The notes under the pieces were generated by a model. The model was not told the DNA's origin and searched no databases. It saw nothing but the letters and a program-made list of their open reading frames with translations. The position numbers and the translations under genes are program-made. A stretch of 64,000 nucleotides of DNA from positions 85,746,001 to 85,810,000 of the forward strand of contig OZ024745.1 of assembly GCA_964016885.1 (NCBI GenBank), given 5' to 3'. Every line of letters begins with the position of its first letter. The first letter of the stretch is position 1. Of the stretch, positions 5,187 through 63,936 are shown one piece after another. The stretch is from Eledone cirrhosa (taxonomy: Eukaryota).

Positions 5187-5299
5187 ATTTTATATATATA
5201 TATATATATGTATTTTATATATATATATATAAATATATTATATATATATATTATATTTTATATATATATACTGTATATATTATATATAGTTGTTATATA

Positions 5300-5812
5300 G
5301 TAGGGTGCATTACTGGTTGTGTAAAATGGTCCAATAACTTTATGCTAGCAATATTAAGTTCTCCACGCTTTTGTATATCTCCAATTCCATTCGAGGGAAC
5401 AGCTAGATGATGTAAAACGGAGTATAAGTATCAAAATGAAAATCCGAAGGCAAGGTAAAATTCCAATCATTTAATCACGACACATGTTTCAATAAGAGAT
5501 AGATCGATTGTGAAGCCATGGTCGATTATCGCTGTTCTTATCAGGTGAAAATGAATTCTCTTCAAATTCTTGATATGAGGGAGAAAAAAATAACGATGTT
5601 CTCTCATAGAATTCATTCCCTCATATTTCTGTGAGAAAACATCGTTATTCTTTTCTCCCTCATATCAAGAATTTGAAGACAATTCATTTTCACCTGATGA
5701 GATCAGTGATAATCGATCATGGCTTCACAATCGATCTATCTCTTATTGAAACATGTGTCGTGATTAAATGATTGGAATTTTACCTTGCCTTCGGATTTTC
5801 ATTTTGATACTC
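5300..5812. mobile_element. Solo PLE-type pseudo-LTR with inverted duplication (arms about 5427-5605 and 5635-5812)
   Basis: Arms are reverse complements with a few substitutions; each holds an HHR motif; (TA)n flanks. Confidence 0.65.
5690..5763 (+). ncRNA. Type I hammerhead ribozyme; inverted mutated copy (CTGATAA core) at 5475-5548 (-)
   Basis: tcac-CTGATGA-long stem II-GAAAC-atgt-GTC-gtga. Confidence 0.75.
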
Positions 5813-6052
5813 ATATTATATATATATATATATATTATATTTCGTTTCTGAATTTGTTTAGCAAGATTCTTTATCTGAAATCGTGTGTTGAAACCGATAT
5901 TGTTATACTTTGGGAGGGTCATGTTGCCAATATGAAACACACGCACCAGTTGCTTTAACTTCAATTTATTATAATAAATTTATAATAAATTTATAAATTT
6001 ATAAATTTCTGGTTGGTTGGTTGGTTCCACAACCAGATAGTTGTTTATATAG

Positions 6053-6297: not shown

Positions 6298-6960
6298 TTA
6301 ATTGTAAGTTGTGATGTTGCTGTTCCACTCATATTTTCTATTTAATTTTGGTTGTAATTCTTTTATGTTTATTGCCTCTGTAATTTGTCTAAACATTGCG
6401 TATTTTCTGTGTGTAGATTCTATTTTTATTTCTATGTTCTCTAATTTGCCCTTGTGTTCTATCTTAGCATGTTGGTAGAGTACAGATGATTCTTTATTAT
6501 CTTGAAGGTCTCGCCGGTGTTCATTTATCCGTTCCCCTACACTACGAGCTGTCTCACCTATGTACACTATATTTTTGTCTCTACATTGTCCTTCAGTACA
6601 TCTCATACTATACACTACATTTCTAGTTTTACAGTTAATATGGGGGCTTATTGTACAGGTTATACATTTCTTATCTATACATGAGGGTCTTTGAAAAGGG
6701 TATGTCTTGCTAATAAGTGTTTTTACAGAGGTACCTGATCTTTCTACTATCTTAATATTGAGTTTATGTTTATTTAGGGCCCTTCTAAATTTGTAAGCTA
6801 ATTCACCTCTAGGGGTTGTATTGATGAACATTACACTCTGGTATTTATTGCTATCATACCATGAGTTTATTCTATTGGCCTTGTTCCTAGTTCTTTCTAT
6901 TCTATTCCAAAATTTGCTCCTATACAAGGGGCAGGTCCCATTTATGTCATTATTTACCAT
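6298..6960 (-). pseudogene. PLE linker plus GIY-YIG endonuclease fragment
   Basis: CIDKKCITC..NCKTRNVVYSMRC...YIGETARSVGERINEH; RQITEAINI. Confidence 0.85.
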
Positions 6961-7445: not shown

Positions 7446-7457
7446 ATATATATATAT

Positions 7458-7552
<95 letters not shown>

Positions 7553-7556
<4 letters not shown>

Positions 7557-7848
7557 AAATAACGAAACGAAATTAAATTTCATTTCATTTGTAACTCACT
7601 TTTGTATGACTGACGCTTAAACAATTAAGTTAAAAAAATTACATCTACATATGCATACTGAAATACTAGTGTGTATATGAATACACACACGTATACATAT
7701 GTATATGTAACAAGTCTTTCACTGGTTGCTTTACTGTGAGCACCCAGCTATTCTGTATGTAAACACACAGACAAACCGGTTTTTAGAGTCATACTGGTTT
7801 TTGAGGGAACACCTTCCCTCTATTCTCCAGAAAGCCAGACAAGGAATA

Positions 7849-7852
<4 letters not shown>
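7553..7852 (-). mobile_element. Solo diverged partial copy of the 467-bp retrozyme-like unit
   Basis: Collinear with 39224-39522, with substitutions; (TA)n on both sides. Confidence 0.9.
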
Positions 7853-7892
<40 letters not shown>

Positions 7893-7898
7893 TATTAT

Positions 7899-8260
7899 AA
7901 ATGAAGTAATTCCGTCGGAAAGGTCCAGGAAAAAAGAATGCTCTAGGTAGGTTACAGAGCTTAAGAGTTATGTAATAAACAACATAAGGCAATTATTTCA
8001 TTGACCAGTAGTTTCTTGAAAGCAAACAAATTTTGCTTTCAATCATCAGAATGAAAAAATCCTGGTGTCTTTATTGACATTGGATTTTAAAAACAAAAAT
8101 ATAATCTATATGAAAGTGAGGCTGGAAAAAGAAGAAGCAAAAAAATTAGACACACATGCACACACACACACACACACACAATTACATACAAACACATATA
8201 TATACATACATATACACATATATATATATATATCAACATATCCATACATACACATACACA
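7899..8260 (-). mobile_element. 3' part of non-autonomous HHR element family E
   Basis: Matches 33250-33515 and 21480-21670. Confidence 0.75.
7996..8056 (-). ncRNA. Type I hammerhead ribozyme (family E)
   Basis: tttcatt-CTGATGA-ttgaaagcaaa..tttgctttcaa-GAAAC-tactg-GTC-aatgaaa. Confidence 0.88.
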
Positions 8261-10385: not shown

Positions 10386-13300
10386 TTTCTTTTTATTTGC
10401 CACCAGGGCATCAAAAAGTGGGACAAGTACAATGGGGGAGTTTACATAACAGGGCGTCCTCAATAAGGATGAGGCAATAACAATGTATAAAAATAAAATA
10501 AAACATAACAAAATAAATTTTATAACAAAATCCTCAATAGGGAGGAGGCGCCTTGGGGGGTCGCACACACCCCCGAAAAAAGTGTGCAACCCTTCTCCCC
10601 AGGAGCACAGAGAGGGGGTGCTCCCTTGATCTTTCCTCTTCCTCACCTATAGTCTGATGTAGAGGGAAGGCCCATTCACACGGGCCATTCTCGCCACTTT
10701 CACCCGTCTTTCATAAAAACGGCTGGGGTGCAGCCCCTCTCTCTCCATCCTGATCCTTCTTCCGAAGTGATATCGGAAGAAACGGACCAGTTGTTGGCCA
10801 GAGAGAAAGGTGTCTGACCTCACTCCTTTCAGACGCGTCCATCATACAACCTCTTTCGCCATGGCTATTACGCACAGAAACACCGCCTCTCCTTCGTTTT
10901 TGAAGAGGGGAGGCGGCTTGGTCGTTACAATAGACTCGGTGGTCAACCGGATCGGTCCCACCCTTGACAGCAGTTGTTCGACATAGCCCCACGCATCTGG
11001 GACAGATCTTTTTCGAAGGGCTCCCTACCCGGGCGCCCGTGTCTGTAGAGCCTTTCTCGAACGGGCAGAGCCCCTCGGTAGCACTGCCAGGCCAGGGACC
11101 TCTGGAAGTTATCCATGGGTCCCGGGCTGAATGTCCTACTGAACAGGTTGTCCAGTTCGTCTTCCTCCATGCCTAGGGCTTCTCCGAGGGCGTCGTTGCA
11201 CCTGCTAACCACCAGCCCTCTATAGAATGACGAGGTGGATTCTCCGCTGACAGCCGGGTCCGCCTGCCAGAGAGCCGTGAGCGCCTGGGCACACTCGGTG
11301 TGCCAGGCGCCCAGTTTTCTCGGTCTTTGCTTGACCCAGGATTGCAGCTCGGTGAGCGAGACGAGTCTGGGAAAGGCTCGCCTCACAAACGGGGCCCACA
11401 CCGGTTGACAGGTGAGGAATACCTGGAGGTGCCGTAGCCTTAATGCGTGTTTACGTATCACTAGCCACGGCATCCCCAGCCCTCCTTTCGAAGGGTGTTG
11501 ACAGCAGATGGATCTCCTCACCATAGGAGCCCGCTTCTTCCAAAGGAATTGGAAGAGTGCGCGCTCCATTTTGGCGAGCGTTTCCCTTGGGCAAGGCACA
11601 ACGGTCAGGCGGTAGTAGATGACGGACGCTATATAAGTGTTCGCCACCTACTCCCGACCTTTCAGGGACAGTTTGAACTCGGCCAACTTCTGGGTCAGTG
11701 CAAACACCCTGTTCATTACCTGACCCCAGTTCTTCTCCACCTGGAGGTCTGGTTCGAACCAGACCCCGAGCAACTTCACCGGGCCCTCTGTCCAGCGCCC
11801 GACGACGCCATCGGAGGGCATCGATCTGCCCCTCCACGTGCCGAGTTGTAGACCGATCGACTTGTGCCGGTTCAGCTTAGCCCCTTGTAAACCTTTCGTA
11901 CTCCTCCAGTAAGGTGCCGATCGCCCCGATTTCCGAGGCCGTCGACACCATTACTGTTACGTCGTCGGCGTAGGCCGACACCGCTTTCCGGTTCCAACTG
12001 GATGCCCTGCAACAACTCCAACTTCCGCAGCAGTGTCTCTAGAGTCATTACATACAGAAGGGAGGAGAGAGGGCACCCTTGTCGGATGGACCGCGCGATT
12101 TCGAACGGCTCTGAGAAGTAGCCGTTCACCTTGACCCTAGAGCAGATGCGGCTGCTGTGCATGCCATTGATCCAGCCCCTGAAAACCGGTCCGAAGCCTG
12201 CTGCCGCTAGCATCGCATCCAGGTAACCATGGTAGACCCTATCGAACGCCTTAAATTGATCCAAGTTGATCAGGGCCCCACCAAAGCCGGGTTCGTTCCC
12301 AACTCTCTCTATGATGTATCGCATGAGGTGGAGGTTGTTGTGGATGGACCTGGACGGGATAGCACATGTCTGCGCATCTGCCACCAGGTTGCCCACGACG
12401 AGCGCCAACCTCTTTGCTAGCACCTTGGCCAAAATCTGTAACTCTGTGTTTAGCAGAGTTATGGGCCTGGAATTATTTATATCGTCCCCTTGTTCTCGTC
12501 CTTCCTCACTACGCCCTTGGTCACAGCACAGGGAATCTCCCGTTCTGTTGCCAGTTGCAGTAGACCGCCTCGAGGAGATCGGGGAACAAGTCCGGCATAG
12601 CTAGATATAGTTCGTATGGAAGACCATCGAGACCCGGGGATTTGCGTTTGCCGCATTGGCTCAGCACGTCCTCTATCTCAGCGGCTGAAATCGGCTCCTC
12701 GCAGGACTTCACCTCCCTGTCCGAAAGACGCGGCAGGCCGTCGAGGTATGGACCGAGGTCCACTTCCCCAACCGGCTCCCCGCCCCTTCCGAACAATCTG
12801 GCAAAGTGCTTTTGAAAAGCCTCGCACATCTGCTTAGGCTCAAGGATCACCCGTCCATCCTGGTCTCGCAAAGACCGGATAGTGGATCTACTCCCTCTTT
12901 TGGCTTCTGTCACGCGGGCCCAGCTAACAGCTTTGGTCCCCTCGTTTCCCCGATGCAGCCTTCGTGTTTTGCGTCGAAGAACTGGCCCAGGGCCGTTCTC
13001 GACGCTAGCACTCTGGCCACGTCGCCGCTTCTAATTGCCTCTTCTACACTATCTACCAACTCCCTTTCCTTCCTATTTCTATTTGAGGCTAACTCCTTAC
13101 TAAATTCTATAGAGACTACTCTAATCTCTCTTTTGAGAGATCCCCACCACCTGCTGTTGACGATGGCGCCTGTCAACCGCTCCTTAACTAAAGTGCTAAT
13201 CCGGTCCCTGTAAGCCTTATTTGCCGGTAAGAACAAGTTGAACTTCCAGTAACCGGGTCCCTGACTATGCGTTCTGTCAGTGTTGACCATGCAGGTCACT

Positions 13301-13643
13301 AACTTGTGGTCTGAATAGCCAACCATGCGCATTTTTGGACAACTTAAAAAGTCCTTATCCTTAATTCTAACTAAGAACCTATCTAGGTACGACCTAGATG
13401 ATCCGCTGCGATTTGCCCAAGTCCAGGTTGGCGCAGTCGGAAAATCTAGTCGATATCTATCGGCCAGGTCAAATCTACCGATTAACCCTTTGAGGATATT
13501 ACACCCCTCTCTATCGGGACAGACCCCTACGTAGTCCCAGCGTGCATCTAAGATACCATTCCAGTCCCCGACTAATAGCAAGGAGCGGGACGTCCCTAGA
13601 AAAGTCTCCAGGCGATGGAAGAAGTCCGGCCGCATTGACCCGA
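10385..13643 (-). mobile_element. 5'-truncated Tx1/L1-clade LINE (APE endonuclease plus RT ORF2, frameshifted)
   Basis: LLLVGDWNGILD, SYLDRFLV, YSDH, GYWKFN, KSPGLDGLPYELY, LDQFKAFDRV, IRQGCPLS, YADD near 11960-11971, KGGLGMP; A-rich 3' end at about 10385-10398. Confidence 0.88.
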
Positions 13644-13644
13644 T

Positions 13645-14441
13645 AACAACTAAACATAATCTTAACAATTTTAACAACTATAATAGGGAAACTTTATAAT
13701 AATTCGCAAAACAAAATAAGAAATAGAACTAGGAATATATTATGGTTCGCTCCTCCTTTCTCATTAAATATTAAAACTCCTATTGCTAAACTATTCTTTA
13801 AAGCTCTTGACAAATGCTTCCCTAGAACACATAGATATTACTCAATATTTAATAGACATACTATAAAATTAACTTATTCATCCACAAAAAATTTAGCGCA
13901 GAATATTAATAGAATTAATAATAGAAATTTAAAACCTAACCAAAATACCAATAATAACCCCAGCAATATCCAATTTACTAATAGAGCTCAATTTAATAAT
14001 ACAGCTCCTAGTTACTTAAATTTTGATAAATGTAACTGTAGAAATAAATCTAACTGTCCGTTAAATAACAATTGTTTAGCTAAAAATATAGTATATAATT
14101 GTAATGTAAAAACTAATTTAAATTCATTTAATTATGTAGGATCTGCTTCCACAGATTTTAAATCTCGTTTTAATAACCATAAATGCTCTTTTACGCATTT
14201 AAACAAAAAATCTACAACTTCTCTATCTAGCTTATTATGGGGCCTTAAATTAAAGAACGTTAAATATTCGTTACTTTGGAATATTATTTCAAAAGCTACT
14301 CCATTTAACTCTTCTTCCGAAAATTGCGATCTTTGTATAGAGGAAATATTCTTTATATTAAAAAGTAAAGATTCCCTGAACGTAAGAAGTTGCTGCAAAC
14401 ATAGATTGAATTCAACGTTTAAATATGAATTTAAAATGTAA
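13645..14441 (+). pseudogene. PLE thumb/linker plus GIY-YIG endonuclease
   Basis: WFAPPFS, FNRHTIKLTYS, CNCRNKSNCPLNNNC, IVYNC..YVGSASTDFKSRFNNH, CDLC. Confidence 0.85.
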
Positions 14442-21690: not shown

Positions 21691-23957
21691 TTCTTTTACT
21701 CTTTTACTCTTTTGCCTGTTTCAGCCATCCGGCTGAGGCCATGCTGGGGCACCGCCCTTGTTGCTACACATTTTATCTCCAGCCTGTATAGGTTGGCCAC
21801 TGGTGTAAGAGCGAGTTTGTTGCTGCTGCCCTTAGCTTTCCCGCGTGCCTTGCTGTGGCCTCATCCGGGATCCTGGATAGCAAGGTGTCGAGATGTTTCT
21901 TGAAGACATCCACCTCCACGTCATGCAAATCTCTCAGATCCCTCGGCAGCTTGTTGAAGAGTTAAGGGCACTTGAATCCCAGGCTATTGCAATACCTGCT
22001 CCTTATTCTAGATGTGGAAGACGGGACCTTTGGCACCACACAGTGACGTCCTGTTAGACGGTTGGTCCAGCTCCCAATGCCACAGTTTGGTGCTAGTCCC
22101 TCCAGGATTTTCCAAATGTAGATCACTGCGTATCTCTCCCGTCTTCGTTCCAATGAGTAGAGGTTCAGTTCCTTTAGCCTCTCCCAGTAGCTTGTCTCCT
22201 TCATCGTGGCAATCCTCTTGGTGTAACTTCGCTGGATTGCCTCAAGTTCTGTGGTTAGTTTGACACTATGGAGTGACCACAACTGGGAGCAGTAGTCCAG
22301 GCGGCTTAGGACAAATGTCTTCCATAGTGTCAACATGGTGTATCGGTCTCTTGTCCGGATAGTCCTCAAGATCCAGCCAGCGAGTCGTCTGCACATTGTC
22401 GCCACTTTCATGATGTGTGAAGAAAAAGATACATCATCGCTCATGTCTATGCCCAGGTCTCGTATCGATTTTGACACGGGGATATCGGTCCCTCCTGGTC
22501 CTGTGTAGTTGTGTTGTACTATATTTGTGTTTGCAGGTTTGTTTGGAGGTTTGTATTGTAGGGCTTTGAATTTGCTAGCATTAAACCGCATGTTGTTTTC
22601 TTCGGCCCATTTGTATATGGCATCCAGATCTTGTTGTAAAAGGGCAGCGTTTGCTGGGTTTTTGATTGCCTGTGCTACTTTAGTATCATCAGCATAGCTA
22701 GTGAGGGATGTTGTTGTATGTACTACAGAGGGCATGTCTGAGAGAGCCACCAAAAACAGTAGTAGTCCCAGGACTGTCCCAAGGGGCACCCCACATGTTA
22801 TCGGTGCTTCCTTTGAGAGGGCCCCGCTTGCTGCGACTGTCTGGCTTCTGTCCTTTAGGAAGTCATGCAGCCACTCACCTACTTTTCCAATTATGCCGAG
22901 TCCGTGTAGTTTGTGACATATCATTCCGTGCTCGACCTTGTCAAAGGCCTTCGCAAAGTCAAGATATATCACGTCCACATGTGAGCTGTCTAGTAGTTGT
23001 TTCAGTACCCAGTCGTAGTGATGTAGCAGCTGTGTAAGGCAGCTTCTTCCTGGGCGGAAGCCATGTTGTGTGCTAGTCAGGCGGTCATTTTCCTTGAGGA
23101 AAGTGATCAGTTTCTTTCTGACGACTCCCTCCATGACCTTACTGATATGCGACGTCAGGGAGACTGGCTTATAGTTTTTAGCCACCGCTCTGCTACCTCC
23201 TTTATGGATAGGTAGTGTTATGCCTTCTTTCAGCTCCCTGGGTAGTACACCGCTAGCCAAGGAGCTTCTGAAGAGCATCTTCAGTGGAGTTGCTAAGGCC
23301 TGCTTACATGTTTTTAAGAGAACTGCTGGGAATCCATCAGGTCCAGCAGCTGAGTCTGTTCTAATTTCATCTATGGCGTACACCACATCCTCCTCCGTTA
23401 TATCTATGTGGTTGATGGTCGCCATTTCTTCATGTAGTGTTGTGGTATCAAATAACTCCACTGGCTTCGTTATTTGCATGTGCCTCAGTGGACATGTGAA
23501 CAGACTTTTGTACTGGTCGTCCAGTATTTCACATATCTCTTGGGGGTTTTCGGTTAATGAACCGTCCGTATGGAAGAGTGGCCCAATCTTGCAGTGGACC
23601 GAGGCAGTTTCTTTTGAAAATTTAAAGAAGGCCTTAGGGTTTGTTTTAATGTTTTCTATGCCCCTGTTCTCTTTCTTTGCCCTCTCATTTTCATGGGAAA
23701 GTTTGAGTGCAATCTCGGTGCCAAGTAGTGCACGTTTCAAAGAGGATTCCTTCTTGTTTTTGTTTTCTTGTTGAGCATTCTACTGGTTTGAGAGCTTGGT
23801 TCTACGTCTCATAATGATTTTCCTATCTCTGGGAATACGATTTTAGTGTCTGTTTGCCTTTTTCTCCGGGACAAACTTGTTTCATATAGTGTGTATCGTT
23901 ATCATCAAGTGTTGAAATTGTGTGTTAGTGTCTTGTGTGGCGATGTTTTCACTCCAT
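21691..23957 (-). mobile_element. 5'-truncated CR1/L2-group LINE with (GAGTAAAA)n-type tail
   Basis: 592-aa RT ORF, 3' UTR with stem-loop and tandem tail ttcttttactcttttactc at 21691-21712. Confidence 0.85.
21962..23740 (-). CDS. LINE ORF2 reverse transcriptase (partial, probably non-functional)
   Basis: AAGPDGFP, NYKPVSLTS, QHGFRPGRSC, VIYLDFAKAFDKV, GVPLGTVLG, YADD, RDLGI, SRLDYCSQLW. Confidence 0.88.
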   Translation of the reverse strand: MKRALLGTEIALKLSHENERAKKENRGIENIKTNPKAFFKFSKETASVHCKIGPLFHTDGSLTENPQEICEILDDQYKSLFTCPLRHMQITKPVELFDTTTLHEEMATINHIDITEEDVVYAIDEIRTDSAAGPDGFPAVLLKTCKQALATPLKMLFRSSLASGVLPRELKEGITLPIHKGGSRAVAKNYKPVSLTSHISKVMEGVVRKKLITFLKENDRLTSTQHGFRPGRSCLTQLLHHYDWVLKQLLDSSHVDVIYLDFAKAFDKVEHGMICHKLHGLGIIGKVGEWLHDFLKDRSQTVAASGALSKEAPITCGVPLGTVLGLLLFLVALSDMPSVVHTTTSLTSYADDTKVAQAIKNPANAALLQQDLDAIYKWAEENNMRFNASKFKALQYKPPNKPANTNIVQHNYTGPGGTDIPVSKSIRDLGIDMSDDVSFSSHIMKVATMCRRLAGWILRTIRTRDRYTMLTLWKTFVLSRLDYCSQLWSLHSVKLTTELEAIQRSYTKRIATMKETSYWERLKELNLYSLERRRERYAVIYIWKILEGLAPNCGIGSWTNRLTGRHCVVPKVPSSTSRIRSRYCNSLGFKCP

Positions 23958-24099
23958 GTTTGCTTTATATATATATATGCATATTATATAATATATATAT
24001 TATGTTTGCTTTATATATATATATGTATAATATATAATATATATATTATGTTTGCTTTGTATATATATTTCATATATATATATATATATATATTATATG

Positions 24100-25590
24100 G
24101 AAAGTTATATTTAAATTGTTGGGTTACAACTAGTAAATATTTATAACTGATATAAAAGCACTCAACAAGTATTTGGAGTATATTTACGATATTAAATAAA
24201 TGGAAACTATATTTATAAAACCATATCTATTTCATTATATATATTTCAGGGATATCATATTAACAATATGTTATGCCTTCCTCAGACAAAATACAATATA
24301 GACAGTTTTATAGATAAATAGATTTGACATACCGTTCAACATCGACTTGTATTTGAGAAAGTTGATTTGGCAGTGAAAAATTGTAAACAGAAAGAAAGAA
24401 AGAGAGAAAGAAGGAAAGAAAGAAAGAAAATGAAGAAAAAGAAGAAAAAGAAGAAATGCATGTAACAAAATAGAGAGATGGAAAGATAGATAAAGAGAAG
24501 AACTTCATGTAAAGAAACAGAGAGAGATATATATATAGAGAGAGGAAATAGATAGAGATAGATATATATAGAGAAAAGTAGGTAGTTGGAACATATCAAT
24601 GATACATTTATTTATTTATTTATTTATTTAGCTCTAGTATCAATGTAAGGGAGATATATGTGGTTAGGGAAGAAACCAGCCGTTATATAGAGAGAAAAAT
24701 GAAAAGTAACCAGACATAGGCGAGGCATAATTTAAAAACCCTATGTTTTAATGTAGAAGTATAAAAACCAGGCGCTATAATGTAAATATCAGTATTCCTG
24801 AATGAGACACGTATCCATAATGTGTGAAAAGTAATGATCTTATGTTTAGTTTTAAAAATAGTAGTTATCATATAAACATATAAACATATGAATTTTTAAA
24901 ACTAAACATAAGATCATTACTTTTCACACATTATGGATACGTGTCTCATTCAGGAATACTGATATTTACATTATAGCGCCTGGTTTTTATACGTACTAAT
25001 ACTTCTACATTAAAACATAGGGTTTTTAAATTATGCCTCGCCTATGTCTGGTTACTTTTCATTTTTCTCTCTATATAACGGCTGGTTTCTTCCCTAACCA
25101 CATATATCTCCCTTACATTAATACTAGAGCTAAATAAATAAATAAATAAATAAATGTATCATTGATATGTTCCAACTACCTACTTTTCTCTATATATATC
25201 TATCTCTATCTATTTCCTCTCTCTATATATATATCTCTCTCTGTTTCTTTACATGAAGTTCTTCTCTTTATCTATCTTTCCATCTCTCTATTTTGTTACA
25301 TGCATTTCTTCTTTTTCTTCTTTTTCTTCATTTTCTTTCTTTCTTTCCTTCTTTCTCTCTTTCTTTCTTTCTGTTTACAATTTTTCACTGCCAAATCAAC
25401 TTTCTCAAATACAAGTCGATGTTGAACGGTATGTCAAATCTATTTATCTATAAAACTGTCTATATTGTATTTTGTCTGAGGAAGGCATAACATATTGTTA
25501 ATATGATATCCCTGAAATATATATAATGAAATAGATATGGTTTTATAAATATAGTTTCCATTTATTTAATATCGTAAATATACTCCAAAT
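24100..25590. mobile_element. Family C-related pseudo-LTR (C2) as an inverted repeat of about 690-bp arms (24171-24859 / 24893-25590)
   Basis: Identical ORF translations on opposite strands; 10-bp insertion in the right arm; an HHR in each arm. Confidence 0.85.
25469..25532 (+). ncRNA. Type I hammerhead ribozyme (C2); mirror copy at 24229-24292 (-)
   Basis: attttgt-CTGAGGA-agg..cct-GAAA-tatata-TA-atgaaat. Confidence 0.78.
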
Positions 25591-25658
25591 ATATATTTAT
25601 TATATATATATATATATATATTTTATATATATAAATATTATATATATATATATTAATA

Positions 25659-39115: not shown

Positions 39116-39515
39116 TATTATATATATCTATATATTATATATATTATATATATATTATATATATATATAACCATATATATATATAACCATTATATATATA
39201 TTATATATATATATTATCTATAAAAACAAATAACGAAACAAAATTAAATTTTGTTTCGTTTGTAACTCACTTTTGTATGACTGACGCTTAAACAATTAAG
39301 TTAAAGATGTACATCCATATATGTATACTGAAATACTAGTATGTATATGAATACACACACGTATACATATGTAGATGTACCAAGTTTTTTCACTGGTCAC
39401 TTTACTGTGAGTGGCCAGCTATTCTGTATGTAAACACACAGACAAACCGGTTTTTAGAGTCATACTGGTTTTTGAGGAAACACCTTTCCTCTATTCTCCA
39501 GAAAGCCAGACAAGG

Positions 39516-39560
39516 AATATTGAACTAGTTTCGTTGTTGTTACAACTCATCAGCAATATT
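39516..39560 (-). ncRNA. Type I hammerhead ribozyme in each 467-bp unit (39516+467n, n=0-9; plus-strand copies at about 44240-44284 and 44707-44751)
   Basis: aatattg-CTGATGA-gttg-taacaa-caac-GAAAC-TA-GTT-caatatt; 7-bp stem I, 4-bp stem II, palindromic AACTAGTT stem III. Confidence 0.88.
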
Positions 39561-39645
39561 TACCTATCTTCCGGCCTCTCTAGAGAATCGTAAAAGCACA
39601 TATCGTTATATGCTTTTTCTATGAAAATTAGTAGTGGGCAGACTA

Positions 39646-39653
39646 ATTTGCAT
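39646..39653 (-). promoter_or_regulatory. Octamer motif ATGCAAAT in every unit, about 86 nt upstream of the HHR; also at 46467-46474
   Basis: Exact octamer conserved at the homologous position in two diverged repeat families; function is inferred. Confidence 0.5.
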
Positions 39654-42600
39654 AGAGTGTGAGTAAGTACCGGTTCAACGGAGACGATAAAAACAAATAA
39701 CGAAACAAAATTAAATTTTGTTTCGTTTGTAACTCACTTTTGTATGACTGACGCTTAAACAATTAAGTTAAAGATGTACATCCATATATGTATACTGAAA
39801 TACTAGTATGTATATGAATACACACACGTATACATATGTAGATGTACCAAGTTTTTTCACTGGTCACTTTACTGTGAGTGGCCAGCTATTCTGTATGTAA
39901 ACACACAGACAAACCGGTTTTTAGAGTCATACTGGTTTTTGAGGAAACACCTTTCCTCTATTCTCCAGAAAGCCAGACAAGGAATATTGAACTAGTTTCG
40001 TTGTTGTTACAACTCATCAGCAATATTTACCTATCTTCCGGCCTCTCTAGAGAATCGTAAAAGCACATATCGTTATATGCTTTTTCTATGAAAATTAGTA
40101 GTGGGCAGACTAATTTGCATAGAGTGTGAGTAAGTACCGGTTCAACGGAGACGATAAAAACAAATAACGAAACAAAATTAAATTTTGTTTCGTTTGTAAC
40201 TCACTTTTGTATGACTGACGCTTAAACAATTAAGTTAAAGATGTACATCCATATATGTATACTGAAATACTAGTATGTATATGAATACACACACGTATAC
40301 ATATGTAGATGTACCAAGTTTTTTCACTGGTCACTTTACTGTGAGTGGCCAGCTATTCTGTATGTAAACACACAGACAAACCGGTTTTTAGAGTCATACT
40401 GGTTTTTGAGGAAACACCTTTCCTCTATTCTCCAGAAAGCCAGACAAGGAATATTGAACTAGTTTCGTTGTTGTTACAACTCATCAGCAATATTTACCTA
40501 TCTTCCGGCCTCTCTAGAGAATCGTAAAAGCACATATCGTTATATGCTTTTTCTATGAAAATTAGTAGTGGGCAGACTAATTTGCATAGAGTGTGAGTAA
40601 GTACCGGTTCAACGGAGACGATAAAAACAAATAACGAAACAAAATTAAATTTTGTTTCGTTTGTAACTCACTTTTGTATGACTGACGCTTAAACAATTAA
40701 GTTAAAGATGTACATCCATATATGTATACTGAAATACTAGTATGTATATGAATACACACACGTATACATATGTAGATGTACCAAGTTTTTTCACTGGTCA
40801 CTTTACTGTGAGTGGCCAGCTATTCTGTATGTAAACACACAGACAAACCGGTTTTTAGAGTCATACTGGTTTTTGAGGAAACACCTTTCCTCTATTCTCC
40901 AGAAAGCCAGACAAGGAATATTGAACTAGTTTCGTTGTTGTTACAACTCATCAGCAATATTTACCTATCTTCCGGCCTCTCTAGAGAATCGTAAAAGCAC
41001 ATATCGTTATATGCTTTTTCTATGAAAATTAGTAGTGGGCAGACTAATTTGCATAGAGTGTGAGTAAGTACCGGTTCAACGGAGACGATAAAAACAAATA
41101 ACGAAACAAAATTAAATTTTGTTTCGTTTGTAACTCACTTTTGTATGACTGACGCTTAAACAATTAAGTTAAAGATGTACATCCATATATGTATACTGAA
41201 ATACTAGTATGTATATGAATACACACACGTATACATATGTAGATGTACCAAGTTTTTTCACTGGTCACTTTACTGTGAGTGGCCAGCTATTCTGTATGTA
41301 AACACACAGACAAACCGGTTTTTAGAGTCATACTGGTTTTTGAGGAAACACCTTTCCTCTATTCTCCAGAAAGCCAGACAAGGAATATTGAACTAGTTTC
41401 GTTGTTGTTACAACTCATCAGCAATATTTACCTATCTTCCGGCCTCTCTAGAGAATCGTAAAAGCACATATCGTTATATGCTTTTTCTATGAAAATTAGT
41501 AGTGGGCAGACTAATTTGCATAGAGTGTGAGTAAGTACCGGTTCAACGGAGACGATAAAAACAAATAACGAAACAAAATTAAATTTTGTTTCGTTTGTAA
41601 CTCACTTTTGTATGACTGACGCTTAAACAATTAAGTTAAAGATGTACATCCATATATGTATACTGAAATACTAGTATGTATATGAATACACACACGTATA
41701 CATATGTAGATGTACCAAGTTTTTTCACTGGTCACTTTACTGTGAGTGGCCAGCTATTCTGTATGTAAACACACAGACAAACCGGTTTTTAGAGTCATAC
41801 TGGTTTTTGAGGAAACACCTTTCCTCTATTCTCCAGAAAGCCAGACAAGGAATATTGAACTAGTTTCGTTGTTGTTACAACTCATCAGCAATATTTACCT
41901 ATCTTCCGGCCTCTCTAGAGAATCGTAAAAGCACATATCGTTATATGCTTTTTCTATGAAAATTAGTAGTGGGCAGACTAATTTGCATAGAGTGTGAGTA
42001 AGTACCGGTTCAACGGAGACGATAAAAACAAATAACGAAACAAAATTAAATTTTGTTTCGTTTGTAACTCACTTTTGTATGACTGACGCTTAAACAATTA
42101 AGTTAAAGATGTACATCCATATATGTATACTGAAATACTAGTATGTATATGAATACACACACGTATACATATGTAGATGTACCAAGTTTTTTCACTGGTC
42201 ACTTTACTGTGAGTGGCCAGCTATTCTGTATGTAAACACACAGACAAACCGGTTTTTAGAGTCATACTGGTTTTTGAGGAAACACCTTTCCTCTATTCTC
42301 CAGAAAGCCAGACAAGGAATATTGAACTAGTTTCGTTGTTGTTACAACTCATCAGCAATATTTACCTATCTTCCGGCCTCTCTAGAGAATCGTAAAAGCA
42401 CATATCGTTATATGCTTTTTCTATGAAAATTAGTAGTGGGCAGACTAATTTGCATAGAGTGTGAGTAAGTACCGGTTCAACGGAGACGATAAAAACAAAT
42501 AACGAAACAAAATTAAATTTTGTTTCGTTTGTAACTCACTTTTGTATGACTGACGCTTAAACAATTAAGTTAAAGATGTACATCCATATATGTATACTGA

Positions 42601-44975
42601 AATACTAGTATGTATATGAATACACACACGTATACATATGTAGATGTACCAAGTTTTTTCACTGGTCACTTTACTGTGAGTGGCCAGCTATTCTGTATGT
42701 AAACACACAGACAAACCGGTTTTTAGAGTCATACTGGTTTTTGAGGAAACACCTTTCCTCTATTCTCCAGAAAGCCAGACAAGGAATATTGAACTAGTTT
42801 CGTTGTTGTTACAACTCATCAGCAATATTTACCTATCTTCCGGCCTCTCTAGAGAATCGTAAAAGCACATATCGTTATATGCTTTTTCTATGAAAATTAG
42901 TAGTGGGCAGACTAATTTGCATAGAGTGTGAGTAAGTACCGGTTCAACGGAGACGATAAAAACAAATAACGAAACAAAATTAAATTTTGTTTCGTTTGTA
43001 ACTCACTTTTGTATGACTGACGCTTAAACAATTAAGTTAAAGATGTACATCCATATATGTATACTGAAATACTAGTATGTATATGAATACACACACGTAT
43101 ACATATGTAGATGTACCAAGTTTTTTCACTGGTCACTTTACTGTGAGTGGCCAGCTATTCTGTATGTAAACACACAGACAAACCGGTTTTTAGAGTCATA
43201 CTGGTTTTTGAGGAAACACCTTTCCTCTATTCTCCAGAAAGCCAGACAAGGAATATTGAACTAGTTTCGTTGTTGTTACAACTCATCAGCAATATTTACC
43301 TATCTTCCGGCCTCTCTAGAGAATCGTAAAAGCACATATCGTTATATGCTTTTTCTATGAAAATTAGTAGTGGGCAGACTAATTTGCATAGAGTGTGAGT
43401 AAGTACCGGTTCAACGGAGACGATAAAAACAAATAACGAAACAAAATTAAATTTTGTTTCGTTTGTAACTCACTTTTGTATGACTGACGCTTAAACAATT
43501 AAGTTAAAGATGTACATCCATATATGTATACTGAAATACTAGTATGTATATGAATACACACACGTATACATATGTAGATGTACCAAGTTTTTTCACTGGT
43601 CACTTTACTGTGAGTGGCCAGCTATTCTGTATGTAAACACACAGACAAACCGGTTTTTAGAGTCATACTGGTTTTTGAGGAAACACCTTTCCTCTATTCT
43701 CCAGAAAGCCAGACAAGGAATATTGAACTAGTTTCGTTGTTGTTACAACTCATCAGCAATATTTACCTATCTTCCGGCCTCTCTAGAGAATCGTAAAAGC
43801 ACATATCGTTATATGCTTTTTCTATGAAAATTAGTAGTGGGCAGACTAATTTGCATAGAGTGTAAGTACCGGTTCAACGGAGACGATAAAAACAAATAAC
43901 GAAACAAAATTAAATTTTGTTTCGTTTGTAACTCACTTTTGTATGACTGACGCTTAAACAATTAAGTTAAAGATGTACATCCATATATGTATATGTACAT
44001 CCATATATGTATACATATATGGATGTACATCTTTAACTTAATTGTTTAAGCGTCAGTCATACAAAAGTGAGTTACAAACGAAACAAAATTTAATTTTGTT
44101 TCGTTATTTGTTTTTATCGTCTCCGTTGAACCGGTACTTACACTCTATGCAAATTAGTCTGCCCACTACTAATTTTCATAGAAAAAGCATATAACGATAT
44201 GTGCTTTTACGATTCTCTAGAGAGGCCGGAAGATAGGTAAATATTGCTGATGAGTTGTAACAACAACGAAACTAGTTCAATATTCCTTGTCTGGCTTTCT
44301 GGAGAATAGAGGAAAGGTGTTTCCTCAAAAACCAGTATGACTCTAAAAACCGGTTTGTCTGTGTGTTTACATACAGAATAGCTGGCCACTCACAGTAAAG
44401 TGACCAGTGAAAAAACTTGGTACATCTACATATGTATACGTGTGTGTATTCATATACATACTAGTATTTCAGTATACATATATGGATGTACATCTTTAAC
44501 TTAATTGTTTAAGCGTCAGTCATACAAAAGTGAGTTACAAACGAAACAAAATTTAATTTTGTTTCGTTATTTGTTTTTATCGTCTCCGTTGAACCGGTAC
44601 TTACTCACACTCTATGCAAATTAGTCTGCCCACTACTAATTTTCATAGAAAAAGCATATAACGATATGTGCTTTTACGATTCTCTAGAGAGGCCGGAAGA
44701 TAGGTAAATATTGCTGATGAGTTGTAACAACAACGAAACTAGTTCAATATTCCTTGTCTGGCTTTCTGGAGAATAGAGGAAAGGTGTTTCCTCAAAAACC
44801 AGTATGACTCTAAAAACCGGTTTGTCTGTGTGTTTACATACAGAATAGCTGGCCACTCACAGTAGAGTGACCAGTGAAAAAACTTGGTACATCTACATAT
44901 GTATACGTGTGTGTATTCATATACATACTAGTATTTCAGTATACATATATGGATGTACATCTTTAACTTAATTAT

Positions 44976-46083: not shown

Positions 46084-46093
46084 TATATATATA

Positions 46094-46805
46094 CGGAAAA
46101 AATGAAGCAAAATTTTATTTCCCACTCTTAGTAAGGCTGTTACTTAAATATAAGTATGTACACGTACATACATATATGTATACAGACTTACAGTAGTATG
46201 TATATATATATACATACATGCACACATATATATATGTACCGTATGGATTCACTGAACATTTATTATAATGCTCGGTGAGGTTTGTAAACAAACATCCCGC
46301 AATAAGCCGTAGTGTCCAGCAACCATCGTTGCTCGTTTGTTCAACACTGACAAAGGAACGCTGTACTAGTTTCAAGCTTATTAGCTATCGTCAGCAACGT
46401 ATACCTTCCTGCCAGATAGTTGAACGTATATACTTACCTTATGCATATTAACAGCTGAGAAGCCCAATTTGCATATCGAGTGGGTTAATCGGCCGGGTGC
46501 ACCGAAAACGATAAACGGAAAAAATGAAACGAAATTTCATTTCTCACTCTTAGTACGGCTGTTACTTAAATATAAGTATGTACACGTACATGCATATATG
46601 TATACAGACGTACAGTAGTATGTATATATATATACATACATGTACACATATATATATGTACGTATGTTTACAAACACACCGAGCATTATAATAAATGTTC
46701 GGTGAATCCATACGTACATATATATATGTGTGCATGTATGTATATATATATACATACTACTGTACGTCCGTATACAAATATGTATGTACGTGTACATACT
46801 TATAT
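46094..46805 (-). mobile_element. Second retrozyme-like family: 422-bp unit, 1.35 copies plus terminal inversion (46665-46805)
   Basis: Unit start cggaaaaaatgaa at 46094 and 46516; HHR and octamer present; (TA)n flanks. Confidence 0.82.
46358..46400 (-). ncRNA. Type I hammerhead ribozyme (422-bp family)
   Basis: acgttg-CTGACGA-t-agct-aata-agct-t-GAAAC-TA-GTA-cagcgt. Confidence 0.82.
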
Positions 46806-51190: not shown

Positions 51191-51390
51191 ATTATATATA
51201 TAAATTAATAAAAACAATGAATAAAAACAAAGAAACAGTTCATTATATTTAAAAATTCATCATTTTACGATCGTTTCTAGGATATATATGTGTGTGTTGG
51301 TATCTATATCATAGATCTATGTAAACATTTTCCAAAATATCAGAGGAAATATACATACCTACACATATATATGCTGTCTTCACAAATAAT

Positions 51391-51573
51391 TGTTTCTACT
51401 TTAGGCACAAGGCCAGCAATTACCCAGTGCATTACTGGTACTTTATTTTATCGACCCCGTAAGGATGAAAGGCAAAGTCAACCTCGGCGGGATTTGAACT
51501 CAGATCGTAAAGGGACGTAACTATGCTGGAAAGCATGGCGTCCGACCCTCTACCGATACTGCCAATCCACCGC
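51391..51573 (-). mobile_element. Full-length tRNA-derived SINE with an imperfect target-site duplication of about 18 bp
   Basis: A box TGGCAGTATCGG, B box GAGTTCAAATCC; flanks gctgtcttcacaaataat / gctgtgttcagaaataat. Confidence 0.88.
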
Positions 51574-53005
51574 TGTGTTCAGAAATAATGATATTTGTTT
51601 ATTGAAAAAAAGCAACAAAGATTTAATATAATTGGTCTGTTTGGGAACAGGTTTTGAATTGACCAATAGAAAAGTAGTAAGTGGTCAAGTTGATAGAATA
51701 GTAGTAGTAGAAATTTAATTTAGGGGTAGAGGAATGCAGAATTAAGTTTTAAATGGAAAGAATACTTTGAATGAAAAGATTACTTTGGGGATGAAAAGAG
51801 GTCAAGCCGTTGAAAGGTACACGAAAATTTGATGTTATTAAAGAATAATGCTAGTGTTAAAATCGAAGGAGAATAAAATTTTAGGGTAAATGCGTTAGTG
51901 AGAAATACCGATCTTATTTAAAATACAAGGAATTTAGATCTATAACAAGAAATTAAATTAATTTAATTGATAGGTATACTTATAGGGATAAATTTATATT
52001 AATTCATATAGATGTGATAAATAAGAGTTAGATGTTATTAAAGAATGTTGTTAAAAACGAAGGAAAAAATTGTTCGGGATAAATGTATTAGTGAGAAATA
52101 ACAAACTTATATATACTACAAGGAGTTTAGATTCATAACATGAAATTAAAATAGTTTATATGTATTCTTGTCGCTTATTTAATAGGATATCCTTAGATTT
52201 CATTATCCTTAGATTAATATCCTATTAAATAAGCGACAAGAATTAATTATATCGTGCAATCATAGAATTAGAAGAACTTTCAAATATTATAAACCTAATT
52301 AATATGCACCATACACTTATATTTTACAAATTATTATAATTAGTTTTTTTAATTTAGGTAACCTATAATTAGTATTTTACTACTGAGAACTTCATAATTT
52401 TATTTCCCTTTTACAGCTCTCTTTTCCTAAAATTAATACCTATAAGTATACATATAAACTATTTTAATTTCCTGTTATGAATCTAAATTCCTTGTAGTAT
52501 ATATAAGTTTGTTATTTCTCACTAATACATTTATCCCCTCAAAAAAATATTTTTATTTTGTTAACAACATTCTTTAATAACTCTTATTTATCACATCTAT
52601 ATGAATTAATATAAATTTATCCCTATAAGTATACCTATCAATTAAATTAATTTAATTTCTTGTTATAGATCTAAATTCCTTGTATTTTAAATAAGATCGG
52701 TATTTCTCACTAACACATTTACCCTAAAATGTTATTCTCCTTCGAGCATTATTCTTTAATAACATCAAATATTCGTGTACCTTTCACCGGCTTGACCTCT
52801 ATTCATCTCCAAAGTAATCTTTTCATTCAAAGTATTCTTTCCATTCAAAACTTAAGTCTGCATTCCTCTACCCCCAAATTAAATTTCTACTACTACTATT
52901 CTATCAACTTGACCACTTACTACTTTTCTATTGGTCAATTCAAAACCTGTTCCCAAACAGACCAATTATATTAAATCTTTGTTGGTTTGTTCAATAAACA
53001 AATAA

Positions 53006-53141
53006 CATTATTTCTGAAGACAGCATATATATGTGTAGGTATGTATATTCCCTCTGATAGTTTGTAAAAATTTTACATAGATCTATATGATATACATACC
53101 AACACACACATATATATCCTAGAAACGATCGTAAAATGATG
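53006..53141 (+). ncRNA. Type I hammerhead with about 100-nt stem II (family F); second copy at 53802-53937
   Basis: cattattt-CTGAAGA-..atatatatgtgt..acacatatatat..-GAAAC-gatc-GTA-aaatgatg. Confidence 0.8.
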
Positions 53142-53408
53142 ATTTTTTTAATATAAGGAGCTGTTTCTTTGTTTTTATTCATTATTTTTATTAATTTATA
53201 TATATATAATATATAATATATATATATTATATATACATATATATATAATATATATAATATATATATAATCTATATATATATATATAATATATATATATAT
53301 ATGATATATATAATATATATTTATATATATAATATATATATATATAATATATATATAATTTATATATATATATATAATATATATATATATATAATATATA
53401 TATATAAT

Positions 53409-54345: not shown

Positions 54346-54349
<4 letters not shown>

Positions 54350-54813
54350 ATTAAATAAATGGAAAACTATATTTATAAAACCATATCTATTTCATTATAT
54401 ATATTTCGGGGATATCATATTAACAATATGCTATGCCTTCATCAGACAAAATACAATATAAACAGTTTTATAGATAAATATATTCGACATACCGTAATAA
54501 ACATCAACTTCATTTGAAGAGGTTTACGCTAGCAGGACTGCTAGCGTAAACCTCTTCAAATGAAGTTGATGTTTATTACGGTATGTCGAATATATTTATC
54601 TATAAAACTGTTTATATTGTATTTTGTCTGATGAAGGCATAGCATATTGTTAATATGATATCCCCGAAATATATATAATGAAATAGATATGGTTTTATAA
54701 ATATAGTTTTCCATTTATTTAATATTGTAAATATACTCCAAATATTTGTCGAGTGCTTTTATATCAGTTATAAATATTTACTAGTTGTAACCCAACAATT
54801 TTAAATATAACTT

Positions 54814-54816
<3 letters not shown>
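54346..54816. mobile_element. C2 pseudo-LTR as a near-perfect palindrome (centre about 54536) with HHRs at 54389-54452 (-) and 54621-54684 (+)
   Basis: ..tttacgctagcag-ga-ctgctagcgtaaa..; attttgt-CTGATGA..GAAA-tatata-TA-atgaaat. Confidence 0.85.
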
Positions 54817-59588: not shown

Positions 59589-59590
<2 letters not shown>

Positions 59591-62500
59591 CGGCGATGAA
59601 TTAGTTTAGCGAGGTTTTTTATATGAAATCGTGTGTCGAAACAGATATTGTTATACTTGGGGAGGGTCATATTTGCGTAATATTGCCAGAATTAATAACA
59701 GAACACACTCACTGTTTGGTTGACTCTCCCCAAGTATAACAATATCTGTTTCGACACACGATTTCATATAAAAAACCTCGCTAAGCTAATTCGTCGCCGC
59801 TACGGCATTAGCTTGTGCCAAACTGAAAGGTTATTGAAAGACACTGTTTTCTGTTATATAAAAACTACAATAACAACAGAACAAATCCGCTTCTTAAAAC
59901 ACTGTGTTTCCTCCAAAACATACACAACAAACATATCAAAACAAGTAAATAATTTATTATTGAACAAAACACAAGCCGAACGGCTAAAACACACAATAAC
60001 AGTTAATATGAAAAGAACAACATACACAAAAGTCAACGCACTCTACAGACAGAAACGCATCAACGGTAAGGAAATCCGAAATCTCATCACAGCAAACGAG
60101 AGAGATGACTTCATGAGCGTCATCCGACGCGAAACGAAATACGCTCGAAACGAATGCTATAGGCATTTCAAGAAGAAATTAGAATGGATGAATAAGAGAA
60201 AACTACAAGAAAGGAAAATCGAATATTCTCAAAAATACCCAGATAACATCGATAATATCCGTATGACTGATGTAAAACTACCGGAAGAATTTACCAATGA
60301 CCACACAGTAAATATCTATGGGAACACTTTAATCAGTGAACAAGAACAACAAATCCTACGGTTACCACCAAAATTTGCCATCTACAAAAAGATTAACCCT
60401 ATGGAATGCAAAACGGAGCTGGAAAAGTGTTTCACAAAAATACGTTGGAATGCAAAGGTAAACAACAACAACAATAATAACGGTAGTAGTAATATAAACA
60501 ATAACTCTGGGTATAGAAATAACAGCCATAACCATAACAATGGCAGGAAAGTGAGAAATAGTGATAATGGCAATAATACTAGCGATAGACGGAACAACAA
60601 CCACAATAATAATAATAATAGAAACGTTAACCACAGACACAGCAACAGTGACCACAGTAGTAATAACGGTAACAATACGAACAACAACAACAATAACCAC
60701 AGTGGTAATAATGGAAATAGTACATGTAGCAACATCAACAAAAACAAGAAACATAATAATAGTAACAACCACAATGGTAGAAATAACAGTAACAACAACA
60801 ACAATAACGGTGAAGTAAACAACAATACATCTAGCAATCATAACAATAATAATAAGGCTAATGATAGAAACAACAACAACCACCCCGATAACAACAATAG
60901 CAACACACACAACTATGACGATAGATACAATGACAACCCCTTAGATATATATGTTTATATTACTACTACCGTTATTATTGTTGTTGTTGTTTACCTTTGC
61001 ATTCCAACGTATTTTTGTGAAACACTTTTTCAACCCAGCTGACAAAACATATAAGATGGGTAATATCTATCCTACGAGGTTACCCTTTAATAAAAGAGTT
61101 TGCATACCACAGCAAATAGATGACGAGACGGAGGCACAGTTCACCATAGCTAGAAATAAGATTAGACAAGTAGTAGACAGGTATACTAAGAGACAGAGCG
61201 GACCAGAGGCCCAACAACTTGGGAGAAAACCTGTAGAAGGCTTGGTTAGCCTCAAGCAGCGCACAAGGGATGGTGAGGTAGTGTGTCTACCCACAGATAA
61301 GTCTGGTAGGATGTCAATAGATAGCATGCCGAACTACATCGAGGCTATGAAACCCCACATCACCAACACGAGCGAAGTTGCACAACAAACACACGATGGG
61401 AGAGAAAAAATCCTCAACGCTCACATGATGATGTGGACTGACATCCTAATGCCAAGCAGACGCACTGCCAACAACTTCCAGGCGTCTAACAATGGCATAC
61501 CACCCTTGTATGGGCTCCGCAAAGACCACAAGACAGTCGACGACCCGACAACAGGCCACCAACAAGACCCGTATGCGGAGCTAATATAGCTAGCAACTAC
61601 AGGATTTCCTACTTCCTCTCAATGGTTATACGCCCCATAATCAAGATGTCCCCAGATGTATGTGAAAGTACAGAGGACCTCCTCAGCAGAATCAGTGAGT
61701 GCAACAAAAACAGGAGCCTATCCAACTGCATAATAGGCAGCATGGATGTGGTGTCACTGTACCCATCCATTAACATTGATTTTGCTGTGAAAAGATGTGT
61801 GGAGATGATCATTGAGAGTGAGGTGGAGTTCTGCGACGTCGACACAGACGAACTGGGCCTCCTACTTAGACTTACCTACGACACTGACTACCTAGACAGC
61901 CATGACCTTAGATGTTTCTGCCCTAGTAGACCTATAAGAAGTAGACCCCCCACCATAACCTCAATGGCAAAAAAGACTCCCATAGGAAGATGGATTGGGT
62001 GGACCAAAGCTATACGGACCCCCCAAAACACTGATCAGGTAAGAAAAATGGTCGCACATGCAATAGGGGCTAGTATCAAAACTACCCTAAAGGGCCACAT
62101 ATTTAAGTTCAATGAGAAAATCTACACCCAAAATGAGGGAGCAGCCATCGGCGTCAGCATAGCTGGTGATGTTGCCAACCTTTTCATGGTATGGTGGGAA
62201 AGGAGACTTAAAGATCTCCTTAATGAAAGCTCCATAGACCTCATCATGTACTCTCGTTATGTAGACGATATCAATATAGTTATAAGAACACCCCCACTAG
62301 AGAGCACTAACATGTTTGATTTAGAACGTAGCACGATGGAAAGCATCCAGCAGATAGCTAATTCCATACACCAGAGTATAACTGTAACTATCGACTTCCC
62401 TTCCAAACACCCTAAACAATAGACTATCTGTATTAGACACAGAACTCTGGATTAACACTATAGACGAGAGAGCCCAAATTCTCCACTCACACTATGCTAA

Positions 62501-63936
62501 ACCCATGGCCTCCAAATACCTGATACTCAAAAACTCAGCAATGTCCAGTAGTGCTAAGTTTAATATTCTGATCGCAGATTTGGTACGAGTGATGAAGAAT
62601 GTGTCCAGCATGTGCGACCCAACAGAAATGGAAAGACACATCCAACACTTCATCAACCGCATGCAGTTCTCTGGCTACAACCAAAGAGACAGAGTCAGAG
62701 TATACGAAGGAGCCATGGAAAAGTATAAGACCCTCATAAAACTGGACATGAAAGGAATTTGCCCATTATACAGGAGCAAATCATGGAATAGCTTAGATAG
62801 GGCTAGACATAAGATAGGGAAAGCCACATCATGGTACGACAACCAGAGATACTAGAGTGTCATGTTTGTGGACGCCACCCCTGGAGGGAAATTAGCTAAC
62901 CAGTGTAGAAAGGCCTTGAGAAAGACCCACTTAAAAATCAAGGTGGTAGAAAAGCCAGGAACCACCATAAAATCCCTGATCAGCAAAACCTACCCTTTTA
63001 AGAAAACCCACTGTACCAATAGGAAATGTATCATATGTAAGGTGAACCCCCGGATAAACTGTAAAACTAGAAACGTAGTCTATAGCATAAGATGTACAGA
63101 GGGTACTTGCAGAAACATGACAACAACATACATAGGTGAGACAGCTCGTAGCATAGGTGAAAGGATAGACCAACACTGGGGGGAACTAAAAGGACGAAAA
63201 AACGGGTCAGTACTATACGAACATGCTAGACAACAACATGACGGTAACATAGACAACATAGAAATTAGAATAATATCTAAACATAGGAATGACCCAGCAG
63301 ATAGGCAAATCAGAGAGACCAGTGAAATAGAAATTAGAAGACCAAAGCTAAACAGAAAGAATGAGTGGAACAAAAACAACACCCAAACAAACAACACTGA
63401 CCTAAGAGAAGTATAAATAAGTAAATAAATAAAATAAAATAAAATAATATAATAAAATAAAATAAGATAAATAAATACATACACAAGCACAATAACAACA
63501 AGCACATAAACACACACTAGTCACCCAGCAGACACAACACTATACACACTAAATAAATAAATAAATATATAGACAGACTGAATAAAAAAATGGCGTAGAC
63601 ATACAACACAACAGGAGGAAAAAATATAACACAACAGGAGGAAAAAATATAACACCACTGACGATGTTGCAGATGTACAACGAAAGATTTATGTAAATTA
63701 TGTAAACTATATATATGTGTTTGTGTCTATATTGTGTCTGTATTATTTTTGACCATCGGTCAGTCAATGGCAACATTGCGGACCGAGTAAGTTAGATCGC
63801 AGATATAAAAGACAGCGAGAAGCGAAAACCAACCAAACAATGAGTGTGTTCTGTTATTAATTCTGGCAATATTACGCAAATATGACCCTCCCCATATATA
63901 TATATATTGTTAGACTTGGGGAGGGTCATGAGAGGG

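Follow-up and report, generated by a model that had tools for sequence, protein, structure and literature searches.

A young hammerhead-retrozyme insertion in Eledone cirrhosa and the two-ended anatomy of its family

The copy at positions 7553-7852 of the window (the whole 64,000-nucleotide stretch of DNA that was analysed) is probably a young, RNA-templated hammerhead-retrozyme insertion made by a Penelope-like reverse transcriptase (RT), with a right end that combines a random truncation at unit position q296 and a 6-nt stub of an inverted arm. By its sequence, the family to which it belongs is a non-LTR retrozyme, and the solo copy is one short copy among thousands. It is likely that this repeat is pasted into (TA)n tracts by Penelope-like retrotransposons. 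The host genome measures 3.0 Gb, and the junction counts given below are exact matches genome-wide. The features of the window are collected in Table 1.

Table 1. Features of the window that bear on the solo insertion and its family
Feature	Position	Strand	Remarks
Left (TA)n target tract of the solo insertion	7446-7552	.	
Arm A of the solo insertion, unit q1-q296, from End A	7553-7848	- (RNA sense = minus strand)	99.3% to nearest relative
Terminal hairpin (q9-q37) adjoining the End A priming point	7561-7589	-	array copy z=-3.9; solo copy z=-2.5
TAATTG, reverse complement of q70-q75	7847-7852	+	likely 6-nt stub of an inverted End-B arm; TA (7847-7848) common with arm A
Right (TA)n target tract of the solo insertion	7853-7899	.	
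Large sister insertion, arm A (10 units of 467 bp and a further q1-q105)	39224-43993	-	from End A after an AT-rich flank
Type I hammerhead, first unit of the window array	39516-39560	-	predicted cut after GUU, between 39523 and 39522
Sister insertion, inverted arm B of about two units	44009-44973	+	finishes at End B (q71 form) on an AT-rich flank
Diverged sibling retrozyme family	46093-46801		own type I hammerhead: CUGACGA, CUAG stem III, GUA cut
Frameshifted Penelope-like element: RT, cysteine linker, GIY-YIG-like motifs	59590-63893		106-nt inverted arm on (TA)n

The solo copy and the anatomy of its family

Sequence comparison identifies the solo copy as q1-q296 of the 467-bp unit of the window array, with 92.3% identity. 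The initial annotation had described the copy as diverged. In fact, eight close relatives elsewhere in the genome differ from it by 2-4 substitutions with zero gaps over 296 nt, the nearest by 2 differences in 296 nt. Since these relatives are so close, the 92% identity to the window array reflects a subfamily difference, and the solo is, as its sequence indicates, a young insertion of another subfamily than the window array. The same annotation was right that (TA)n lies on both sides of the copy and that the copy begins at the start motif of the array, from whose commonest form it is two A short. It had also proposed a fixed priming point beside the terminal hairpin, and this is supported: End A (q1) is found at 2,067 exact (TA)n junctions genome-wide, with 0 in the control, and the hairpin of the array copy stands out in folding (z=-3.9). 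Among the contigs of four sequencing runs compared with the solo, none spans it; a 343-base contig of run X6, which aligns to 7595-7634 and 7760-7843, represents a related repeat of another organism with an apparently shorter unit.

The family consists of a small dispersed 467-bp tandem unit lacking an LTR, with at least 7,095 units in the genome. The unit is non-coding (no ORF of at least 150 aa in the array, and no ORF combining RT and GIY-YIG), and the element is non-autonomous. Most of the first 30 loci contain two facing arms, which start at q1 (End A) and at q66-q71 (End B), both on (TA)n; the q66 forms of End B alone account for 1,041 exact junctions genome-wide, with 0 in the control. 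Arm ends were taken from 90 End-A places, the first of the 2,067 and all located on contig C1; after one duplicate was dropped and six arms were found to run off the fetched DNA, 83 arm-A ends and 62 arm-B inner ends were obtained, i.e., 145 inner ends. Among the inverted arms of the End-A sample with a visible outer end, one duplicate locus included, 50 of 54 finish at q65-q72. End B lies on (TA)n in elements that were picked by End A, in keeping with the AT-rich or microsatellite targets of Penelope-like insertions.

The two arms of one element have a median identity of 98.75% (n=55), whereas the median between arms of different elements is 92.7%. Their inner junctions are scattered along the unit and carry small overlaps or fillers. 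Snap-back copying of arm A can be ruled out as a general source of arm B, which is often far longer (L156, L159 and L165). Within elements, the majority of variants (313) are private to one unit, and 23 sites in 7 elements are common to both arms in some units only. One of these sites is in the window array: a 4-nt deletion (q436-439) is confined to the innermost full unit of each arm (43859-43866 and 44139-44146), and both arms stop at q105/106. This could reflect a linear template whose end both arms share, conversion between the halves of the palindrome, or an effect of assembly.

On the minus strand, the unit contains a 7-bp stem I, CUGAUGA, a 5-bp stem II, GAAA and a CUAG stem III, and the cut position given in the initial annotation is upheld, falling between q299 and q300 (window 39522 and 39523 in the first unit). 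In that unit, stem I pairs 39560-39554 with 39522-39516, CUGAUGA occupies 39553-39547, and the 5-bp stem II and CUAG stem III complete the fold. The core with the 7-bp stem I and 5-bp stem II was found in 12 window units. Between subfamilies, stem II differs by a compensatory U-A to A-U change, and the cut triplet is either GUU or GUC; the sibling family keeps the hammerhead stems with different sequence. A search of Rfam at gathering thresholds gave no match for the hammerhead. Judged by these features, there is good support for a type I hammerhead in the 467-bp unit, and its cleavage is predicted.

Further motifs were observed in the window. Hammerhead-like motifs of at least four other families are located at 568, 8049, 9019, 16119, 21590, 24285, 25476, 28247, 31118, 31809, 33362 and 39018, and near them palindromic segments lie between (TA)n runs (5271-5816, 24094-25600, 51192-53196 and 54346-54816). 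The octamer ATTTGCAT at unit q421-428 (39644-39651) is kept in both retrozyme families; we take it to be a possible snRNA-type promoter element, after newt satellite 2.

The right end of the solo and the predicted cut

At the right end, the array reads GGAATATTG, and the solo reads GGAATAATTG followed by TATA. The initial annotation had stated that the solo ends exactly at the cut, which the comparison does not bear out: identity to the unit stops at q296, and the form with the extra A occurs at 1 genomic place, the solo itself. The second fixed end (q66-q71 on the inverted arm), which was missing from that annotation, explains the last bases of the solo, as TAATTG followed by TATA is this end, inverted, in one of its three common forms. 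This End-B form occurs 25 times in the fetched loci, which partly overlap, and AATTG followed by TATA is common. Among the 83 complete elements, inspection by eye found End-B stubs of about 20 nt or less in 11, stubs consisting only of TAATTG(TT) in 3 (L148, L162 and L164) and direct joining to (TA)n in 8.

An arm A that runs to q296 and a 6-nt stub that shares its TA therefore account for the solo end without mutation, while an end at the cut site requires a unique insertion. An origin of this end by self-cleavage, as had been proposed, is not supported. A stub is favoured over a cut end plus insertion by a likelihood ratio of 380 if indels occur at the background rate and the hazard is equal; when the assumptions are tilted towards the cut, the ratio is 2.5-38. 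An End-B stub cannot be proved from six AT-rich bases. It is likely that the position of the solo end near the predicted cut is a coincidence to which an End-B stub was added, since the other copies show no peak of ends there. The solo had also been offered as fossil evidence of ribozyme cleavage; as a single copy it does not prove this. Unlike the left end, its right end is not above chance.

The wider distribution of ends supports this reading. The distribution of the 145 inner ends is consistent with a uniform hazard (chi2 10.6, df 9, p=0.30), with none at q299 (0.29 expected) and 8 at q289-309 (6.2 expected), and 7,095 units genome-wide read through the cut site. For arms leaving the unit at q292-q308, two filtered searches were made, with 100 of 109 and 31 of 31 matches listed. 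The tally of these ends (n=107) leaves out 16 indel variants, 7 ends at q309 and the solo, and counts both arms at palindromic junctions; it was made mostly by eye, with confirmation by script for the 30 rows whose DNA had been fetched. Among the matches listed, q299 has 9 ends, two of which are internal deletions, against a mean of 6.1 at the other positions (P=0.17); with the solo included, P is 0.09. The count at q299 is near the baseline of 5-7 per position. Among the 100 of 123 matches listed for places joining (TA)n within q289-318, 0 of 32 read AATATTG and then TA, and the ends cluster at TA-like bases; a separate search gave one copy with AATATTG then TA, which carries a stutter. Priming at a ribozyme-made 3' end was ruled out as well, with starts at 4 places. 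The initial annotation had expected peaks of copy ends at the hairpin-adjacent start and at the cleavage site. The former is present in the 2,067 End A junctions. No peak is seen at the latter. For this end the copies are spread along the unit, the outcome that the annotation itself had named as speaking against its reading.

The alternative is that the template RNA was self-cleaved and the RT ran off its 5' end at q299, after which one A was gained by slippage or 3 nt were lost in joining to an End-B stub. We consider this unlikely for the solo, although its end lies within 3 nt of the predicted cut and its arm A finishes in q293-299, a stretch with a mild excess of ends. Among the matches listed, 60 ends fall in q293-299 and 41 in q300-308 (p=0.001, with windows picked after seeing the data), and p rises to 0.025 among the same matches once four microhomology hot spots are removed. 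A minority of the ends in q293-299 may come from cut RNA. However, measured against all arm ends, this excess does not go beyond a few tenths of a percent, and stalling at stem I could produce it, as could the TA-like and palindromic bases of this stretch; q299 itself has no peak against the thousands of read-throughs, and none of the listed direct joins to (TA)n has the sequence that a cut end would leave. Moreover, the Anolis element, in the cited passages of PMC11167929, has no reads starting or ending at the cut.

Some other traces near q299 do speak for cut templates. ACAAGG or CAAGG stutters occur at 6 of 19 ends at q292-293, compared with about 4 in the sample of 145 junctions (p=2e-4). 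The combination of a stutter and a following AATATTG gave 7 matches, among them three family copies, all of which halt or jump at q299; L235-L237 were rejected as stutter copies, being chance matches. In the hammerhead, three internal deletions of at least 8 nt were found, and in two of them the left break is exactly at q299 (about 0.005 if uniform), while a control stretch showed no internal deletions of this size. The best candidates for a real cleavage trace are L219 (G000:C1:218585940-218588975, 749-2178) and L221 (G000:C5:81644758-81647792, 1160-1715). In L219, which carries a multi-fold CAAGG/ACAAGG stutter, all three passes are broken at q299; two resume at q327/q328, and the third ends at q299 and folds back. 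In L221, both units carry a deletion with its left break at q299 and its right break at q327/q328. These marks, in very small numbers, fit cut RNA kept together by stem I. They are also compatible with an RT that stalls at stem I or skips it, and with copying from a unit in which the deletion was already present. A bolder reading, less likely than not, is that a small minority of copies record in vivo cleavage inside arrays, where the RT would stutter 7 nt before the cut, reach q299 and jump stem I to q327/q328; seamless jumps or circles would then hide the remaining cases.

The solo might also be what is left of a longer insertion with two arms, if its palindromic middle was deleted in DNA, or lost in assembly, between two TA dinucleotides, so that arm A and the End-B stub remained. 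Long inverted repeats are unstable, most sister insertions are of this kind, and the junction has a 2-nt TA overlap. Against this, the solo is young, with only 2 differences from its nearest relative, and the length of arm B varies continuously between about 6 nt and more than 3 kb, as variable synthesis predicts; we consider a remnant very improbable. Truncation of arm A at q296 with a short End-B stub thus stays our preferred explanation of the solo.

Proposed mechanism and candidate mobilisers

The insertion anatomy suggests the following course of events. A GIY-YIG endonuclease would nick both strands of a (TA)n tract, and each nick would prime reverse transcription at one of two internal RNA sites, which lie about 70 nt apart and flank the hairpin region. 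The template would be multimeric or circular, so that the enzyme passes the hammerhead. The two cDNAs would halt at variable points and be joined where they have a few bases in common. For the solo, this would mean an arm A of about 296 nt and an arm B of about 6 nt. The RNA step is inferred from this anatomy, which in the same way supports the earlier proposal that the family moves through RNA.

A candidate mobiliser of the retrozyme is the Penelope-like element at 59590-63893. It is abundant and young, with at least 150 copies at 98-99% identity and intact 1,218-aa frames elsewhere in the genome. We take its GIY-YIG-like motifs, as read in translation, to be those of an endonuclease. Searches of Pfam and PDB did not directly recognise the endonuclease region, and some homologues of the element carry PF00078, PF01541 or PF26215, the nearest named one being from Octopus vulgaris (68%). 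The putative endonuclease identity is based on the motifs in translation and on the domains of these homologues. The search for an autonomous partner of the unit, made by sequence comparison with this family and by eye for the second Penelope-like family of L152, found none, and the element at 59590-63893 has no clear or meaningful match to the unit. Elsewhere in the window, 10943-13677, 21962-23779 and 6298-6960 hold pieces of LINE-type RT and endonuclease (PF00078, weak PF03372), together with another Penelope-like fragment that shares about 55% identity with the element at 59590-63893.

The sibling family at 46093-46801 has a homologous End A, an inversion and an End B about 59 nt in, i.e., the same two-end inverted anatomy. 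In L192 (G000:C13:31995643-31999200, 428-2581), an arm of this sibling family is joined without TA to the interior of a member of the 59590-63893 family, and the outer ends lie on (TA)n. In L152 (G000:C1:78801047-78807246), arm A (q1-437) is followed by about 140 nt of LINE-like RT sequence and then by a second Penelope-like family that ends on an AT-rich repeat; by eye, this family shows an RT end, a GIY-YIG-like region and a hammerhead-like core. Both loci look chimeric, and each is a single case. L131 was ruled out as a retrozyme-Penelope co-insertion; it mirrors a neighbouring insertion, including a private junction.

In general, thousands of young insertions display a hammerhead retrozyme with the full Penelope signature of two internal starts, inverted arms and (TA)n targets. 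The claim from phylogeny that retrozymes of animals derive from Penelope elements as non-autonomous forms thereby gains support at the level of insertions. The findings are also in line with in vitro work in which insertion ends were not set by hammerhead cleavage. Jumps at the cut site, though rare, provide a concrete test of an open question, the in vivo role of these ribozymes. If they do reflect cleavage, the q299 jumps together with the chimeras L192 and L152 would provide evidence from the genome for a two-RNA Penelope complex that moves retrozymes and copes with cut templates.

Comparison with known systems

In L1 twin priming, the first primer is placed at the poly(A) end, while the position of the second one varies. 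As in the 467-bp family, two primers on opposite target strands give inverted cDNAs that are joined via short shared sequence. Unlike in L1, both starts of the 467-bp family are fixed and internal, and its arms overlap in sequence. Another point of reference is given by R2 elements with HDV-like ribozymes, in which, according to the cited part of PMC3774820, ribozyme cleavage sets the 5' junction, a pattern not seen here at population level.

Non-LTR retrozymes were defined by Cervera and de la Pena 2020 (PMC7229834), and the preprint bioRxiv 10.64898/2026.07.22.740005 derives them from Penelope-like elements. As far as the cited passages of these two sources describe them, metazoan non-LTR retrozymes share with the 467-bp family non-coding tandem repeats, a type I hammerhead per unit and low GC, and they are likewise dispersed as monomers and multimers alongside Penelope-like elements. 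The two fixed internal starts and the inverted arms found here are not described in those passages of PMC7229834 or bioRxiv 10.64898/2026.07.22.740005. The preprint proposes, in the passage concerned, that a terminal repeat is amplified locally in tandem. In the present family, by contrast, whole arrays start and end at fixed sites. Within the portion of the literature covered, nothing was found on paired-arm retrozyme insertion or on template jumps at a hammerhead cut.

The closest parallels are with endonuclease-bearing Penelope-like elements. For the Anolis element PAc, the cited passages of PMC11167929 report that two internal start sites in vitro define the Penelope 'tail', that AT-rich cleavage affects both strands, and that hammerhead cleavage is unneeded, with no RNA reads ending at the cut. 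Those of PMC8557442 describe inverted truncated copies, a 30-40 bp tail and a microsatellite bias, and call hammerhead function unclear. According to both sources, so far as cited, these elements resemble the present family in having an inverted 5'-truncated copy beside a direct one and a 'tail' between two RT starts, as well as AT-rich or microsatellite targets and a hammerhead that lies upstream of the starts and does not mark insertion ends. Compared with Penelope-like elements as described in the same passages, on the other hand, the 467-bp family has no ORF, its tail measures about 70 nt and not 30-40, and its arms are multimers of the 467-nt unit. Its hammerhead also differs from theirs in being of the canonical kind with a short palindromic helix III, a feature that the cited part of PMC4209133 treats together with dimeric cleavage.
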